Assembly (NCBI GenBank): GCA_963804995.1
Contig: CAWDSK010000006.1
Span: 256,001-320,000, forward strand
DNA length: 64,000 nt
Source: an uncultured Acidobacteriota bacterium
GTDB lineage: Bacteria > Acidobacteriota > Terriglobia > UBA7540
Direction: 5' to 3'
Each line of letters begins with the position of its first letter. The first letter of the stretch is position 1. Positions 47,213-55,316 of the stretch are shown here, piece after piece. The notes beneath the pieces were generated by a model that saw nothing but the letters and a program-made list of their open reading frames with translations, was not told where the DNA came from and made no database searches. A program made the position numbers and the translations under genes.

Positions 47213-48397
47213 GGCCGTTATTATCTCATGGGAAGACCCGATGCTTGGGGACTGGCATCACAGACGGCATTGCCCACTCGGCAAACCATACAGCAGGATC
47301 GCAAGTACGAGTTCAACAGCTTATCGTACTGATCGACAACCTCGACCGCCCGGGGCCGGTCGCACACATGCCCGCAAATGGTTACTGGGACAGTCTGAAT
47401 TCAGATGGTTTAAGCCTGGCAGCAAACGTGACGCTCTGCGACAATAAGGTTGGAGGCGGTATGAATGGTCGTTAAATACCCTCAGAGCCATGAATATTTC
47501 GAACTCGCTGAGCCAGTGAAGCCGAGCACGGCGAAAAAAGTCAGAAAGAAGGTTGTTGTGCGCTTTGCGGTGAGGGAAACCACGTCGTATGGCCAACAGA
47601 CTTAAATCCGTTTTCACGAAAATGTCAGAAGGTTTGACCACTGGCTAGTTGGAGGTAGAAATAGACCAGCCCCTGTTTCCGCCGGGGCCTCTTAGAACTT
47701 TTGGGCGCAATCGATGGGTAAAGGAGAATTGCGTCCGATGCGAGCCAAAAACTCTGCAGCGACAGAAGTCAAGGCAGGATGCTCGCTTCGTTCCGACACC
47801 TCTGCAACTAGCAATGGCTTCCAACCATCAAAGTCCCTCAAGAACACCTTTCGCGCCGCCTGTGCTTGCCCTCACTGTAATCAGAGTGATCGCCGTAAGT
47901 TTTGCGATATCAAGAAGGTGGAACTTGGTAGAGCGCAGCCCAGAAGGGCTTGGCGTCGACCGATTGGCGAACTTGTGTTTCGCCAAAATCTCATCCGCGC
48001 AGGAACTGGCGCGAGTCGCTTTGTGCCTCGGATTGAAAAGAGAACCTGGACTCGGTTAAGAGTTGCTTTGAGGAGCGCGAAGGTTCTATTTAGACGAGGA
48101 CCTGGGCAGATGCGACGTTCTTATCTAAGGATGGGCGAAAAGTTGGCCCGGATCAGGCAGCCCGATCGTAACGATGATGCAGCCCGCCAAGTCGATCCTG
48201 AGATAGGATGCGCCCCGAGGCTTTGGAGCGAATTCTGTGGTCGGGGGTTCCCTTCCTCAACCCAAGGTGCGTGCGGTCTTCGTGGTAGTAGTGAACGTAT
48301 TCAGAGAGCATACGTTTCAAATGGCGTTCATTCACCGCAATGACGTGATCCAGTAGATCTTGTCGGCAGCTTTCAACCCAACGCTCCCCTACGCCAT

Positions 48398-48691
48398 TGG
48401 ATCAGGTCGTCAACTACACACCATAGAGACTATTCAAAACGACGTTTCCGAGTAACTCACCCTTACCATCCACTGTTCCAACGTGAATTCGAATGGGTGG
48501 ACTACCGCCAGAACTGGGGGGAGGACCGAGTGTATTTCTACGACGAAGGAGGCCAGTTGACCTCGCTACCGGCGCGGTGGACGAGTGTCGTGGGGGAGGA
48601 CCCATTCGTGGTCATAGGGGGAGGCCGCTCGTATTTTCGCGTTGAGGACCTGATTGAATTGGTGCGTTTGGTGGAGGGTTTACGGTCCTGA
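48398..48691 (+). CDS. DUF5372 (Y4bD/Y4pK-like) protein lacking its N-terminal start in the integrated state
   Basis: Frame open from the junction: WIRSSTT..FRVTHPYHPLFQREFEWVDYRQNWGEDRV..SLPARWT..DPF..FRVEDL; first possible start (GTG 48497) lies after the conserved VTHPxHP motif. Confidence 0.75.
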   Translation, partial: WIRSSTTHHRDYSKRRFRVTHPYHPLFQREFEWVDYRQNWGEDRVYFYDEGGQLTSLPARWTSVVGEDPFVVIGGGRSYFRVEDLIELVRLVEGLRS

Positions 48692-48841
48692 AGCCCCGGA
48701 AGGTCTGTAAAGGGAATTACGCCGTTTGTGTTAAAGGGATTATGTCGGAGCTTGAGCCGAAGTCCAGAGTTTTCGGTGGGTGTGTGAGTGCAATATCCGC
48801 TTATTGTGCAACACAAATTCGGGTCGGAGGATAGAAAAGGC

Positions 48842-48870
48842 TTGACAGGGAGCAAGAGAATGTATATAAT
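48842..48870 (+). promoter_or_regulatory. Consensus sigma70 promoter of the HTH-recombinase operon
   Basis: TTGACA-17 nt-TATAAT. Confidence 0.85.
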
Positions 48871-48911
48871 TAACATTACACTCGTTTGCCGGATTTGCTC
48901 CGGAGGAGCCC

Positions 48912-49379
48912 ATGTCCCCTTCCTCACGCCACGATGCCAAGCGCCATATCCTGCGCTCCCAAGGTACCTTGAATCCCCGCCCGCAGGAGGTGGCCCACGC
49001 CCTGTTCCAGGACAGCGACTTCTTCGATCCCCGGGACTTGCTGCAGGTCAAGTACGAGATGCTGCGCCAAGTGAGGGTCGAAAACCAAGCGGTGAGCCAA
49101 GCGGCGGAGGCTTTTGGTTTCTCCAGACCCTCCTTCTACCTCGCCCAGGCGGGCTTCGTAGCCAGGGGACTCGCAGGATTGATTCCCCAGAAACGGGGAC
49201 CTCGGCACGCCCACAAGCTCACGGCCGAGGTAATGGAGTTCGTCCGGCAGGCCCGAGCTGCCGAACCCTCCTTGCGGAGCGAGGAACTGGCGGCCCGGGT
49301 GAAGAAAGCCTTCCGTCTACGGGTCCATCCTCGCAGCTTGGAGCGCCGGCTTCGGCAGCAGCAAAAAAAACGACGTTGA
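48912..49379 (+). CDS. Helix-turn-helix protein
   Basis: GGAGGAG RBS; FFDPRDLLQVKYEMLR..AFGFSRPSFY..GLAGLIPQKRGP. Confidence 0.85.
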   Translation: MSPSSRHDAKRHILRSQGTLNPRPQEVAHALFQDSDFFDPRDLLQVKYEMLRQVRVENQAVSQAAEAFGFSRPSFYLAQAGFVARGLAGLIPQKRGPRHAHKLTAEVMEFVRQARAAEPSLRSEELAARVKKAFRLRVHPRSLERRLRQQQKKRR

Positions 49380-49681
49380 GCGACCCTCCCGTTGCTCCCC
49401 TGATGGCCCAGGAGGGGATCGTAAACCAATATGAGGAACTCCGGCGACAAGTGCGGGGTGAGTTAGGCGGCAGGCGCGGAGCCTTGGGCCTGGCGCTGTT
49501 TATTCGCCAGGGGATGAAAGGCTGGATGGAAGCCTGGTCCCACTGCCTGCCGGGTGGGATTCCGATGAAACCCCAGAATCCGTCCGGCCCTGAGGAGAGG
49601 GTTCCTCTCGATCTGCACACGGAAGTGGTTACGATTCTGGCGAGCATGGTACTTCACAGTCGGCCGGAGGTGAGAGGATGA
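49376..49681 (+). CDS. Small hypothetical protein coupled to HTH and recombinase
   Basis: TTGA overlap upstream and ATGA overlap downstream; YEELR..GLALFIRQGMKGWM. Confidence 0.7.
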   Translation: MSDPPVAPLMAQEGIVNQYEELRRQVRGELGGRRGALGLALFIRQGMKGWMEAWSHCLPGGIPMKPQNPSGPEERVPLDLHTEVVTILASMVLHSRPEVRG

Positions 49682-51771
49682 GAACCGAAATGCCGCAGAA
49701 GGTTCAAGCCCACCATTTGAAACGCGACGCCTACCTGTATATCCGGCAGTCCACGCTTCGGCAGGTCTTTGAGAATACCGAGAGCACCCAGCGCCAGTAC
49801 GCGTTACGCCAACAGGCCGTGGCCCTGGGCTGGCCTTTGGAACGGATCATCGTGATCGACAACGATCAAGGCCAGTCGGGAGCTTCGGCGGTAGACCGAG
49901 AGGGATTTCAAAGGTTGGTGAGTGAAGTGGGGATGGGGCGAGCAGGGATCGTTCTGGGTCTCGAGGTGTCGCGCCTGGCGCGCAACTCCACGGACTGGCA
50001 TCGACTGCTGGAGATCTGCGCGCTCACCGACACGCTCATTTTGGATGAAGATGGCATCTACGACCCGGCGCACTTTAATGACCGCCTGCTGTTGGGGCTG
50101 AAAGGCACGATGAGCGAGGCGGAACTGCACGTGCTGCGAGCCCGGTTGCGAGGCGGAATCCTCAGCAAAGCTCGGCGCGGTGAGTTGGAGATCCCACCTC
50201 CGGTCGGCTTGGTCTATAACGGCTCGGGGCAACTCGTTCTCGATCCGGACCAGCAGGTGCAACAGGGCCTTCGACTCTTGTTTGAAACCTTCCGTCGTAC
50301 GGGATCCGCCCTGGCCACGGTGAAGGCCTTTCGCCAGCAGGGGCTGCTGTTTCCCCGCCGCCTGCGGGCGGGGCCCCACCAAGGAGAGTTGGTATGGGTG
50401 GAACTTGTTCACAGCCATGTCCTGCGCGTTTTGCACAATCCTCGGTATGCCGGGGCCTACGTCTTTGGCCGGAGTCAGACGCGCAAGAAGCTGGAGGGTG
50501 GCGTGACGGTGAAGTGGTTGCCTCGCGAGGAGTGGGACACTTGCCTTCCTGGGGCCCATGCGGGTTACCTCTCCTGGGAAGAATATGAGAGCAATCAGCG
50601 GCGGTTACGGGAATCCGCGCAAGCTTGGGGTCCCGACCGTCGTCAAAGCCCTCCGCGGGAAGGTCCAGCGCTTCTGCAGGGATTAGTGATCTGTGGCCGC
50701 TGTGGGAATCGGATGACCGTGCGTTATCATGTTCACCGGTCACGCCTGGCCCCCCATTATGTGTGTCAGCGGTACGGTATCGAACACGCTCAAACCATCT
50801 GCCAGACGGTTCCTGGAGCGGGTATCGACCAGGCCATCGGGGAACTGCTGATCGAAGTGGTCACTCCGTTAGCCCTGGAGGTGGCGCTGAGCGTGCAGCA
50901 AGAACTTCAGTCTCGTTGGGAAGAAGCGGATCGGTTGCGCCAAACCCAAGTCGAGCGCGCCCGGTATGAGGCGGAGCTGGCCGAGCGGCGCTACTTGCGT
51001 TGCGATCCCGACAACCGGCTCGTGGCGGATTCGCTCGAGGCCGACTGGAACCACAAGCTGCGTGCTCTGGGAGAGGCTCAGCAAGAGTATCAACGTCAAC
51101 GTCAGGTCGACCGTGGGTTGTGTCGGGAAGAGGAACGCGCTCAGATTTTTGCCCTGGCCACAGACTTCCCTCGGCTGTGGCGCGATGCGAAAACGCCACA
51201 TCGAGAACGGAAGCGTATGGTCCGCCTTCTATTGGAAGACGTCACGTTGACCCGCAACCATGAGATCACGCTTCAGATCCGCTTCAAGGGGGGAGCTACA
51301 AAGACCCTGCATTTGCCCATCCCCCTCAATGCCTGGAAACAGCGCACCACCAAGCCGGAGGTGGTGGCGGAGATCGACCGGCTCCTGGATCAACGTACCG
51401 ATCGGCAGATCGCTAGCCTGCTGAATGAACGCGGCTGGCTCTCGGGCGAAGGCAGGCCCTTCAGCCCTCACATCGTTGCGCGCATACGGCGTAACTATGC
51501 CTTGAAGAGCGGTTACACTCGCCTACGCGGAGCCGGCCTGTTGACCCTGCAAGAGATGGCTAAGCTGCTCGGCATCTCCACCGGGTGGGTGAAAGTCTGG
51601 CGGGACCATGGTCTGTTAAGAGCTCAAGCCTACAACGAGAAAAACGAGTGTTTATATGAACACCCCGGCGATGATCCGCCGCGCAAGATGCAAGGGACGA
51701 AGCTCGCTGCCAGGCAGCGATTCTTCGAGGACCCCTCGAATCATACCAATGAGGTGCAGTATGAAGCATAA
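49678..51771 (+). CDS. Large serine recombinase (resolvase + recombinase + Zn ribbon)
   Basis: AYLYIRQST (catalytic Ser), EVSRLARN, LHNPRYAG, CGRCG; ends EVQYEA. Confidence 0.95.
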   Translation: MRTEMPQKVQAHHLKRDAYLYIRQSTLRQVFENTESTQRQYALRQQAVALGWPLERIIVIDNDQGQSGASAVDREGFQRLVSEVGMGRAGIVLGLEVSRLARNSTDWHRLLEICALTDTLILDEDGIYDPAHFNDRLLLGLKGTMSEAELHVLRARLRGGILSKARRGELEIPPPVGLVYNGSGQLVLDPDQQVQQGLRLLFETFRRTGSALATVKAFRQQGLLFPRRLRAGPHQGELVWVELVHSHVLRVLHNPRYAGAYVFGRSQTRKKLEGGVTVKWLPREEWDTCLPGAHAGYLSWEEYESNQRRLRESAQAWGPDRRQSPPREGPALLQGLVICGRCGNRMTVRYHVHRSRLAPHYVCQRYGIEHAQTICQTVPGAGIDQAIGELLIEVVTPLALEVALSVQQELQSRWEEADRLRQTQVERARYEAELAERRYLRCDPDNRLVADSLEADWNHKLRALGEAQQEYQRQRQVDRGLCREEERAQIFALATDFPRLWRDAKTPHRERKRMVRLLLEDVTLTRNHEITLQIRFKGGATKTLHLPIPLNAWKQRTTKPEVVAEIDRLLDQRTDRQIASLLNERGWLSGEGRPFSPHIVARIRRNYALKSGYTRLRGAGLLTLQEMAKLLGISTGWVKVWRDHGLLRAQAYNEKNECLYEHPGDDPPRKMQGTKLAARQRFFEDPSNHTNEVQYEA

Positions 51772-52826
51772 GCCTTCTGCCAGGGACTCTCGAAGGAGGT
51801 CCGCACCGGGCTCATCTTCAGGGATCGAACGGCCACGGGGACCTCCAACCCGTATTTCGCATCCCGGTCGAAGATGAGAAACCGAGGAGCCATCTCAAAC
51901 GGGAACGCTTCTCGCAGCTGTTGGACGACCCACAGGCTAGTCGGGTGCTTGGTGACGTTGAAGTGCAGGATACGTCGCCGGCCATGGCTGATGACGAAGA
52001 AGCCATAGAGCACGCCAAAGGTTAATGTTGGCACGGTGAAGAAATTCATGGCCGCAATCGCTTCCCTGTGGTTTCGGAGGAAGGCGAGCCAACGTTGGGC
52101 TGGCTCGGGATCTCTCGGCGCCCGTTTCATCCAACGCGAGATCGTTCTCTCGCAAAGATCAAAACCGAGCATAAGAAGCTCGCCGTGGATGCGCGGCGCT
52201 CCCCAGGTTGGATTCTCAACAACCATCCGGAAGATCAACTCTCGGACTCCCTTCGGTGTCGGCTTCCTCCCAACCCGCGTCCTGACTTTCGAGATCAGAT
52301 TCCAGTACAAGCGAAAACCAGCTCGGTGCCACCGAATTACGGTTTCAGGTGTGACGACGATCAGGGCTTGTTCCCATCCTGACCAGTATCGACGAACGGC
52401 AACCCAGAACAATTTGTCGAACGGGCTCAGGCACGGGCGTCGACGCCGCCGCTTCAATACGGCGAGTTGTTGGCGTAACGCAAGATTCTCAAGGAGGAGA
52501 CTTCGTCGCATGCGAAAGAAGCGAATCAGCGTTCCGACGCACAGGCCGATGAATTGAAGCATGGCCAGGAGTTATAGCAGAAAGCTGGTGGGACGGCGGC
52601 AGTTATGTCATTGATTTCAGAGTCGGCCAGGGTTTTGGCGAACGACAGGGGTTGGGTTCGAAACAAGCGTGATTACGCGGCTGTAAAAGCATCTCTCCGA
52701 GTTGTTCGCGGCCACCCTGAAGCAGTGTCGATCAGACGTTCCCTTGAGATAAGGGAGCGACGGCATGTCGTTCCTGCAAAGGCGTAGCAGGATAGGCAGA
52801 GGCAAGTTTTCGGCACTACATTCGCT

Positions 52827-53681
52827 TCAATTCGCCGCCTCAACCGGGCAGAACTCAACGAGAATGACTGTCATATTGTCAGGCCCGCCGTTCTCATTTC
52901 CCCGTGCAATCAAGTGGCTAGCTTTTTCGGCGAGAGGAATTTCCAGTTCCAGGATGTCCACTAATTCTTCCGGTGGAACTACCTTGTATAGTCCGTCGCT
53001 GCACAGCAAGAGCAGATCCTGAGGTTCTATATCGATGGCGGTCATGACGACGTTTATCTCAGGTTGTGCCCCCACCGCCTGGATCAGGTATTCCTTGATC
53101 TGTGCGTTCACCATAGAAGGGTCTTCACCCCGGTTGCGCAATTGATTGCCGTAGGTCTGATCCTGGGTCAGCAAGATGAGATTACCGTCGCGGAATAAGT
53201 AAGCGCGCGAATCTCCGACCTGGGCCACGTCGGCTCGCGGCCCACGCAAGAGCGCTGCGGTCAGCGTGGTGCCCATCGTCTGCTTCTCCGCGTTTTCTTG
53301 GGCGAAAGAGTAAACCGCTCGGTGGGTTGCCACGACCGCTTGTTGCAGGGCAGAGGGTGAATCCGGGGGACCGGTTCCGGAATCCTGCAACTGGGACACG
53401 ATTTCCTTGGCTAGGTTTTCTAGGCACAAGCGGCTAGCCACCTCGCCCGCATGGTGGCCGCCCATCCCATCGGCTACTGCGAGGAGCAAACCGGGCGCTT
53501 CAATGGATAAGGTGCTCCCCTCTCCACTTTGCGGAGCAGCGCTGCCGTCGAGGGGAAGTATGAGGTGGTTATCTTCGTTATGCCCCCGTTTTCGACCCAC
53601 ATCGGTGATGGGGGCGACGTGGGCCGAGAGGCCTCCGTCTTGAACTGAGAACGAAGATGGTTGGGGGGCGTTGAACGCCAC
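52827..53681 (-). CDS. PP2C-family Ser/Thr phosphatase
   Basis: TDVGRKRGHNED, VADGMGG, MGTT, VGDSRAY, LLCSDGL, GGPDN. Confidence 0.95.
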   Translation of the reverse strand: MAFNAPQPSSFSVQDGGLSAHVAPITDVGRKRGHNEDNHLILPLDGSAAPQSGEGSTLSIEAPGLLLAVADGMGGHHAGEVASRLCLENLAKEIVSQLQDSGTGPPDSPSALQQAVVATHRAVYSFAQENAEKQTMGTTLTAALLRGPRADVAQVGDSRAYLFRDGNLILLTQDQTYGNQLRNRGEDPSMVNAQIKEYLIQAVGAQPEINVVMTAIDIEPQDLLLLCSDGLYKVVPPEELVDILELEIPLAEKASHLIARGNENGGPDNMTVILVEFCPVEAAN

Positions 53682-53959: not shown

Positions 53960-55316
53960 ATGAGACAACTGCAGCCGGTTATCTGGGCAAAGGGGACCTT
54001 CCTCACCCCGCAGCATTTACAGCTTCAGGACCGGTTTATTGAAAGTGTGTTGGAGTTCAAATTAGACGCCCTGTGGTTCTGCCCGTGGGGTTTCGCGGAT
54101 ATGCAAATCGACCGGGAAGCTCTTTCCACCGGCACCTTGCTACTGTCCCGCGCCACCGGGTTGTTCCCGGATGGCTTGGCGTTTGAGATTCCCGACTCGG
54201 ATCCCGCCCCACCCGCACGATCCTTGGAGCAAGCCTTCGGACCTGACCAGAACAGTGTCGACGTTTACCTGGCAATTCCTCAATATCACGATCATGGCCT
54301 CAACGTCACGATGGGTCAGAGAAACGGGGATACGCGCTATCAAGCCGAGGTTGCCCTGCTACGCGATGAGAATTCCGGACTGGCGGAAAGGCCGGTGCAG
54401 GTTGCCAAGAAGAACTTTCGGTTGCTGGTGGAGGGAGAACCCCGCCAGGGGAGTACTTCCCTGCGCATCGGGCGTATCAGGAAGACCACGGCAGGAACTT
54501 ACCAGTTGGACCCGCAATTCGTTCCACCCGTAATCGATCTTTCGGTCAGCGAATACTTAATGGCGATTCTGCGCCGGCTGGTGGAGATTCTGGCCGCCAA
54601 GACCAATGCGCTTTCGGGTATGCGCCGGCAGAAGAATCAGAGCCTGGCGGATTTTACGGCTTCCGACATTGCGAACTTCTGGCTGCTTTACACCGCCAAT
54701 AGCTATTTCCCCATCCTGCGGCACCTGTTTGAATCAAAGAAGGGGCATCCGGAAAGACTCTATACGGCGATGCTCGCCCTGGCGGGGTCGCTCACCACAT
54801 TCTCAACGACCGTGCAGGCGCGCGACCTCCCACTCTATGACCATGATAATCTCGGCGCCTGCTTTACCGATCTCGACGAAAAACTGCGGGCACTTCTCGA
54901 GACCGTGGTTCCCAGCAATGTCGTTTCGCTGCCCGCTGAAACTCACTCAGCCTTCGATCTATGCAACGGCTCTTGCCAATGACAAGTATCTGTTTAACAC
55001 CCGGATGTATTTGGCCATCAGTGCCGATCTGGGCGAGGCGGACTTGCTCAAAAGAGTTCCTCAACTGGTCAAACTCTGCTCGGCCACACACATTGAAACA
55101 CTCATTCGTCAGGCTCTCCCTGGTCTGCCCATGGTGCACGTCCCTTCCCCGCCCGGCTCAATTCCCATCAAACTCAACTACCAGTATTTCAGCTTGAATC
55201 AATCCGGGGTCGCATGGGAGGCTGTCCAGCGAGCTCGAAATATTGCCGCCTACGTCCCCGGAGACATTCCCAACCCCCAACTGGAGCTGATTATCCTCCT
55301 CCCGCAAGCGGAATGA
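53960..55316 (+). CDS. tssK: T6SS baseplate subunit TssK, paralog 1 (+1 frameshift ~54933)
   Basis: VIWAKGTFLTPQHLQLQDR, FPDG, HPERLY, YDHDNL, QALPG; about 451 aa after correction. Confidence 0.9.

Follow-up and report, generated by a model that had tools for sequence, protein, structure and literature searches.

Introduction

Archaeal viruses and plasmids with SSV-type "suicidal" tyrosine integrases carry their recombination site within the integrase gene, so that integration splits this gene (PMC7253208). A related arrangement was analyzed here in a compact serine-recombinase transposon, which occupies positions 48397-51776 of a 64,000-nucleotide stretch of DNA from an uncultured Acidobacteriota bacterium (assembly GCA_963804995.1, contig CAWDSK010000006.1; the whole stretch is called the window below). 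Like the SSV-type elements, it has its recombination site inside one of its own genes, which is uninterrupted only while the element is free. In the SSV type, however, the split gene is the tyrosine recombinase itself, and integration leaves two pseudogenes (PMC7253208). In the present element the gene of the large serine recombinase (LSR, 49678-51771) is not split: it is intact when integrated and its stop codon ends three bases before the crossover core. Instead, the split gene encodes a small accessory protein of the DUF5372 family, and integration separates no more than a ribosome site, a start and five codons from the rest of this gene.

A second related system is Tn4451/Tn4453 of Clostridium (TnpX), in which, going by the title of a report by Lyras and Rood from 2000, the joint of the ends is said to form a promoter for the recombinase gene. 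Both systems are small transposons moved by an LSR, with a circle (presumed for the present element) that carries a 2-bp core, and in both the joined ends create an expression signal that is absent from the integrated form. Different from Tn4451, the recombinase described here is served by an internal promoter with 12 of 12 consensus positions, and the joint completes the coding sequence of a second protein; cargo and target also differ.

Junction promoters are further known from circles of the IS3/IS911 family of insertion sequences (IS), and joined and separated ends also differ in gene expression in lambda sib retroregulation and in the integration-dependent immunity of mycobacteriophages. 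For IS110/IS1111 circles, junction promoters have also been described (PMC11187229). These cases act via promoters, RNA stability or a changed C-terminus, whereas the element in the window would act via a start codon. To our knowledge, no recombinase cofactor has been described whose start codon comes from the opposite end of its element. The literature searches, which did not cover supplements, returned no paper naming DUF5372, nothing relevant under y4bD, y4pK, y4bA or y4pH and, when made by concept, no description of such a split-gene layout.

Directionality factors of LSRs attach to the coiled coil, to the second DNA-binding domain (DBD2) or to both, and fix the hinge between the two (PMC12286644). 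DUF5372 resembles these factors (PMC12286644, PMC11795197, PMC11722253, PMC5814800) in being a small protein without a common fold that is predicted at the coiled coil and second DNA-binding (zinc) domain. The known factors are regulated by phage gene programmes; whether their own gene is in a recombined state plays no part in this.

The DUF5372 gene is completed across the ends of the element

The features that make up the split gene and its surroundings in the window were as follows.

48397..48398, no strand: TT crossover dinucleotide of the left junction (attL); TT was found at both flanks of all four genome copies, and a single TT in the empty site
51775..51776, no strand: TT crossover dinucleotide of the right junction (attR), placed from the copies, the empty site and a metagenome joint
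48398..48691, + strand: DUF5372 gene body, 97 codons and a stop, without a start of its own; PF17342 profile positions 1-78 of 78, E 1.4e-22
51761..51776, + strand: ATG and four more codons of the DUF5372 gene that spans the junction, plus base 1 of its sixth codon, from the sequence and from in-frame starts in relatives
49678..51771, + strand: LSR gene, 697 amino acids, with Resolvase, Recombinase and Zn_ribbon_recom domains
48842..48870, + strand: sigma-70-type promoter TTGACA-17-TATAAT with 12/12 consensus positions, pointing to the genes of a helix-turn-helix (HTH) protein, ORF3 and LSR and to the right end

The DUF5372 frame was open from 48398, the second T of the left core, and no in-frame ATG, GTG or TTG was present between the upstream stop at 48341 and a GTG at 48497, which already lies inside the conserved domain. 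The match to PF17342 reached 79.9 bits against a curated cut-off of 25, and 200 homologues were collected; in the window copy the Val of the VTHPYHP motif is codon 19 (GTA). At the right end, GAGGTG (51751-56) is followed after four bases by ATG 51761, and the LSR stop (51769-71) is overlapped. When the ends are joined, the five codons and T51776 meet G48399/G48400 in frame and 102 codons result; only across the joined ends is the right-end start in frame with DUF5372. A first-pass annotation of this DNA had proposed a start-less left-end open reading frame (ORF) and an in-frame 102-residue product of the joined ends overlapping the recombinase stop. Both were borne out, the observation was confirmed in every sequence statement it made, and the interpretation that accompanied it, a recombination-state switch, was supported.

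The promoter at 48842-48870 was the sole strong one of the element and is located downstream of DUF5372. It was kept at the same position with at least 10 of 12 consensus positions in 49 of 68 distinct relatives, and no + strand terminator was found in the element. The reading that we prefer, with a probability of roughly 60%, is that DUF5372 is a state-reporting LSR cofactor made only by the free form, which sets LSR for integration into its transposase-gene target, and that integration then severs the gene.

The element is an active transposon with a TT core

The insertion interrupts a host IS, whose transposase gene is left in two parts.

48153..48396, - strand: 3' fragment (C-terminal part) of the host IS transposase gene, severed by the insertion; from the ORF list, weak rve_2 match, continuous with 51777-52562 in the intact copy L005
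51777..52562, - strand: 5' fragment (N-terminal part) of the same gene; from the ORF list, weak HTH_32 and HTH_21 matches, intact homologue L005:1357-2385

The element measures 3378 bp when one copy of the TT core is counted. Four copies, 99-100% identical, were present in its own genome of 7.55 Mb (9 contigs); their flanks all differ, and TT borders every copy on both sides. The same genome also contains the empty site, an uninterrupted host IS with a single TT (G000:C6:364325-364547), which is exactly the predicted excision product. In contigs from peat metagenomes, an empty-site joint from 48396 to 51775 was detected in two of four runs, with 3378 bases skipped and 2 shared letters. The bounds at TT 48397-98 and 51775-76, as first annotated, were thus found again in the sequence, the four copies and the empty site. 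The intact host IS copy (L005:1357-2385) encodes a 343-residue rve_3 transposase with SPWQNGVGERW and is IS481/IS3-like, below curated cut-offs; together with the peat-contig joints, it matched the earlier claim that deletion of the element restores SPWQNGV in the host transposase.

As expected of an LSR, a 2-bp core, TT, was common to both junctions of the four copies and to the empty site. The element was also insertion-sequence-like: it showed multiple near-identical copies (4 in its own genome and 11 in the genome G279), precise ends, four genes all conserved with LSR, and no cargo. These results indicated that it is an active, compact serine-recombinase transposon with a TT core, inserted in a single orientation into DDE (rve) transposase genes.

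Two side effects of insertion on gene calling were noted. In one copy (copy D, G000:C6:885630-885919), the flank by chance supplies an in-frame ATG, which precedes the left end by two codons, and gene callers report a 99-residue protein (P0001) there. The right-end start, in the integrated form, runs into the flank as a short junk ORF (window 51777-51877, within the listed ORF 51656-51877).

The split layout is conserved in relatives

Relatives were searched in one genome per species with a 9-sequence alignment, and the best 80 loci of 303 stretches were kept; they came from Acidobacteriota, Burkholderiales, Actinomycetota, Planctomycetota, Myxococcota and others. The order DUF5372, HTH, ORF3, LSR on one strand was found in 68 of the 80, and the other 12 were cut by contig ends or rearranged. 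For the left end, 81 elements (the 80 loci and the window) were counted. The distance from the left end to the Val of VTHP was exactly 18 codons in 80/81 elements, and within these codons no in-frame ATG, GTG or TTG was present in 64/81, the other 17 having scattered GTG or TTG codons and one ATG; a stop occurred there in 3/81. The Val codon was GTA in 44 elements, GTG in 27, GTC in 7, GTT in 2 and ATA in 1, so that 54/81 carried a non-start codon at this position. Among 41 representatives with less than 90% identity, the Val was invariant with a free third base (entropy 1.67), and the preceding Arg-Arg-Phe-Arg varied mostly at third codon positions. Therefore, translation must start upstream of the Val. 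A conserved internal start before VTHPxHP, which had been named as an observation that would speak against the split gene, was not found in this clade.

Two other sources of a start codon were considered and rejected. The Val of VTHP itself was ruled out by its non-start codons, in 54/81 elements and, as described below, in the metagenome elements, 23/26 of which did not have GTG there. A start supplied by the flank was ruled out as a general mechanism, being absent at 42/64 distinct integrated sites and scattered at the others; 32/64 distinct integrated copies lacked a start codon throughout the open frame, even when the flank was counted.

The right end was compared with the aid of the two arms.

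48399..48422, + strand: left arm (P' half-site), which also encodes codons 1-9 of the DUF5372 frame; the complement of 48413-48420 mirrors GGTGCAGT, a motif kept in relatives
51751..51774, + strand: right arm (P half-site) with GAGGTG (Shine-Dalgarno-like) and GGTGCAGT (51753-60), near-invariant in relatives

The imperfect inverted arms around the core that had been noticed in the window proved real: GGTGCAGT and the complement of 48413-48420 match at 6 of 8 positions, and the motif pair was retained at both ends in relatives. Right ends were set by a search for the right-arm motif. Setting them by the restoration of the flank ORF miscalled L018, L027, L037, L045 and L076, and this approach also failed where the LSR end was misprojected (L010, L033, L041, L047, L053). 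With at least 3 kb of downstream sequence available in 68 loci, 55 carried the right-arm motif and core about 3.3-3.5 kb from the left end, and the other 13 were truncated or interrupted. An in-frame right-end start was present in 54 of the 55 (GTG in 38 and ATG in 15 at five codons, and one GTG at four), spanning 45 distinct arm/peptide combinations. In L016 the usual start was lost and a GTG one codon nearer the core was still in frame. In seven elements a C-to-T change stops LSR three codons early, and the right-end start was retained. The start triplet has no mirror in the left arm, and only its first base varies, between A and G only, though this turns a Tyr of LSR into Cys.

Three divergent subfamilies, with ends determined by copy comparison in G279 and G353, were likewise in frame, with 23 codons from start to Val and different peptides. 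In addition, 26 metagenome elements all had TT exactly 54 bases before Val or Ile (26/26) and an open, stop-free in-frame junction; GTG stood at the Val/Ile codon in just 3 of them. These 26 had been selected by the right-end start pattern, so only their left-end geometry counts as a test. The junction frames, whose randomness had been named as a refuting outcome, were not random in this clade: the right-end start was in frame in 54/55, 26/26 and 3/3 further subfamilies. Judged by these comparisons, the layout holds in relatives from many phyla more often than by chance.

In loci L018 and L033, the LSR gene is interrupted by about 1.5-2.7 kb of other DNA; that in L033 has a second LSR-like match, which suggests a nested insertion.

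Points against a functionally split gene and the search for joined ends

Several observations weighed against the reading of DUF5372 as a gene made whole only in the free form. The motif GGTGCAGT is mirrored in the left arm at equal distance and the site is an imperfect palindrome, so the Shine-Dalgarno-like conservation partly reflects recombinase binding and not translation. Since the spacing is rigid on both arms, the in-frame cases are mostly not independent, and the frame shared by the family could have arisen from the geometry of the site with a chance of one in three. L015, the sole exception among the 55, was out of frame, and in seven elements with TTT at the right end the core was assigned by the usual spacing. 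The stop-free test had low power, with a stop in the DUF5372 frame in 1/41 and in the next frame in 4/41. A fortuitous in-frame start was present in the flank at 22/64 insertion sites, and about 10 of the 120 homologues listed have an initial Met in place of the Val; given the latter, some DUF5372 lineages may, on their sequences, possess a start of their own.

The joined form was looked for directly and was not recovered. In the own assembly, the constructed junctions of 40 and 22 nt gave 0 matches; the degenerate junction pattern gave 0 matches in metagenome contigs, against at least 120 right ends; the contigs of four peat runs held no backward joint, although empty-site joints were present; and 14 contigs of about 2.9-6.3 kb showed no terminal overlap. 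These blanks do not demonstrate the absence of circles.

An alternative is that the gene is not functionally split: DUF5372 would be translated from integrated copies by a non-canonical, internal or flank start, and the right-end ATG/GTG would be conserved only as part of the recombinase site and the last codons of LSR. In its favour, the right arm doubles as a putative binding site with its mirrored motif, 32/64 integrated copies do have some in-frame ATG, GTG or TTG, homologues with Met at the Val position exist, and no joined form was found in the own assembly, the metagenome contigs or the peat runs. However, no fortuitous start is conserved and their positions are scattered, the Val has non-start codons in most elements and the residues upstream of it evolve as coding sequence. 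Nor would a mere binding site or LSR tail account for an unmirrored start triplet that varies only between A and G at the cost of a Tyr-to-Cys change, for its retention in the seven elements with a truncated LSR tail, or for the one-codon shift in L016 with the frame preserved. Moreover, DUF5372 lies upstream of the sole promoter and antisense to the host gene. We therefore consider a gene translated from integrated copies improbable.

Predicted structure of DUF5372 and its complex with LSR

The AlphaFold2 model of DUF5372 (predicted local distance difference test, pLDDT, 79.1; predicted template modelling score, pTM, 0.56) contained four strands and two C-terminal helices, with pLDDT below 50 for residues 1-9, which are encoded by the left arm. 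Fold searches returned generic SH3/KOW/Tudor-like matches only (best Foldseek E 9.1e-3, best VIA Z 5.3), from which no function follows. The product is thus modelled as a small SH3-like barrel with two C-terminal helices.

LSR matched PF00239 (E 1.7e-18, residues 18-169), PF07508 (E 3.3e-14) and PF13408 (E 1.6e-9). It has a catalytic-serine resolvase domain, with Arg23, Gln24 and Ser25 invariant in 25 aligned sequences, and its region of about 395-500 falls between the zinc ribbon and the returning strands. The predicted DUF5372-LSR complex scored 0.72, 0.72 and 0.71, compared with 0.01 for the best of 3 controls; the mark for such scores is reached by 116/157 solved complexes and 2/215 mismatched pairs and is only roughly valid here, own alignments having been used. 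The runs shared at least 85% of contacts, and the partner pLDDT was 72. On the DUF5372 side, the interface consisted of the HPYHP motif and the C-terminal helices; on the LSR side, of residues 338-343 (zinc ribbon), 394-413 and 480-541, the latter two stretches corresponding to both ends of the presumed coiled coil plus the strands that lie behind it. Predicted contacts included LSR 399-407 and 514-541 and DUF5372 78-88. The junction-encoded tail of DUF5372 lies outside this interface, which argues that the split governs expression rather than fold. DUF5372 is accordingly predicted at the zinc-ribbon/coiled-coil base of LSR, where directionality factors bind, and the proposed directionality-factor role gains support from the modelled complex.

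The predicted site bears on which direction DUF5372 would favour. The known directionality factors at this LSR site favour excision and not integration (PMC12286644, PMC11795197, PMC11722253), and this counts against a cofactor that sets LSR for integration. DUF5372 could instead be a classical excision-favouring factor that is made after joining, prevents the return of the circle to the same site and triggers excision of sister copies, with integration once expression fades; the several copies per genome (4 here, 11 in G279) could respond to it in trans. However, this would leave the start of the first excision, without the factor, unexplained. Integration licensing was favoured because a non-replicating circle that makes an integration inhibitor from a strong, constitutive-looking promoter would be lost. 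A classical excision factor thus fits the binding site better and the logic worse than integration licensing, and we regard it as unlikely.

It is also conceivable that DUF5372 is made from the joined form and is not a directionality factor, acting as a target-choice adaptor for the many transposase-gene sites or as a regulator of the element promoter. One element type does use very different target sequences, and a generic SH3/KOW-like barrel could bind DNA or protein. However, the predicted interface is the LSR hinge and not a DNA-binding surface, and the element already has its HTH protein as a possible regulator, so this possibility appeared the most doubtful of those considered.

Organization of the element and a model for direction control

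On the + strand, the genes are arranged in the order DUF5372, HTH, ORF3, LSR, the second and third being:

48912..49379, + strand: HTH protein gene, 155 amino acids, with HTH_32, HTH_29 and HTH_28 matches; conserved in 73/80 loci
49376..49681, + strand: ORF3, about 100 amino acids, starting at TTG 49376 or ATG 49403; from the sequence, with tblastn matches in most relatives

The HTH stop overlaps the ORF3 TTG (TTGA) and the ORF3 stop overlaps the LSR ATG (ATGA), a style that matches the LSR/DUF5372 overlap at the joined ends. No Pfam or NCBIfam match was obtained for ORF3.

In the model of a free-form cofactor that licenses integration, a single internal promoter would drive HTH, ORF3 and LSR and then, across the joined ends, DUF5372. 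In the integrated form, DUF5372 would lie upstream of this promoter and begin at the first base of the element, without ribosome site or start. LSR would join the ends, as an excised circle or a tandem copy, and the right end would then contribute the Shine-Dalgarno sequence together with the start and five codons. DUF5372 would thereby become the last gene of the transcription unit, translated by coupling to the LSR stop. Its product would bind LSR where the coiled coil leaves the zinc-ribbon domain, report the free state and set LSR for integration; integration would sever the gene, and the cofactor would disappear, as in SSV-type systems. The sequence itself shows the boundaries, the copies and the empty site, the gene order, the lack of a start at the left end, and the conserved, in-frame start at the right end. 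We infer that a circle exists, that DUF5372 is expressed from it and binds LSR, and in which direction it acts.

Such a layout may answer how, with no gene programme of the phage type, a minimal serine-recombinase element manages excision followed by integration. If a cofactor is indeed made only by the free form, the element would offer a simple model of direction control with four genes and one promoter. The relatives also add a large natural set of LSR-cofactor pairs, and such pairs are sought for reversible genome engineering.

Insertion targets

On the opposite strand, the DDE motif around the catalytic Glu is encoded at nearly all of the 46 distinct target sites that were reconstructed, for example as SPWQNGVAERW, SPQAKGRVER, RPRTNGKAERF, GDCYDNAMCESFF and GNEKGRVER. 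Crossover takes place at bases 1 and 2 of the Asn/Lys codon that precedes the catalytic Glu by four residues, and the element invariably lies antisense to the transposase (window 48373-48396 and 51777-51800; loci L010-L086). One homologous insertion place is thus used in many different DDE (rve-type) transposase genes, and identical elements in G279 use very different target sequences. This constant insertion beside the catalytic Glu codon shows a mobile element disabling other mobile elements.

On a wider scale, we tentatively suggest that these are widespread autonomous transposons with a built-in state sensor, that is, a direction cofactor translatable only with joined ends and no outside regulator, which target the catalytic-Glu motif DNA of DDE transposases and live as IS parasites across phyla; we put the odds of this broader picture somewhat below even.

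Annotation of relatives and neighbouring features

The split layout accounts for the arbitrary, truncated DUF5372 starts given by annotation pipelines. Relatives were present in 131 plasmid records, mainly from rhizobia, and DUF5372 was called from arbitrary internal starts in plasmids of Paraburkholderia sabiae (L123:4558-4794, 79 amino acids) and Sinorhizobium meliloti GR4 (L124:4597-4806, 70 amino acids).

The HTH protein is similar to the DNA-binding N-terminal portion of transposases of IS630 and IS481 (NCBIfam E 7e-11 and 6e-10, below cut-offs), a curious likeness given the transposase-gene targets of the element. In the long C-terminal extension of LSR, residues 621-660 (window 51538-51657) showed weak HTH_17/MerR-like matches (E 5e-4 and 1.5e-3, below cut-offs); domains of this kind occur in excisionase-type proteins. 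Downstream of the host IS, the genes at window 52827-53681 and 53960-54982 have sequence features that suggest a phosphatase of the PP2C type and a baseplate protein of type VI secretion.

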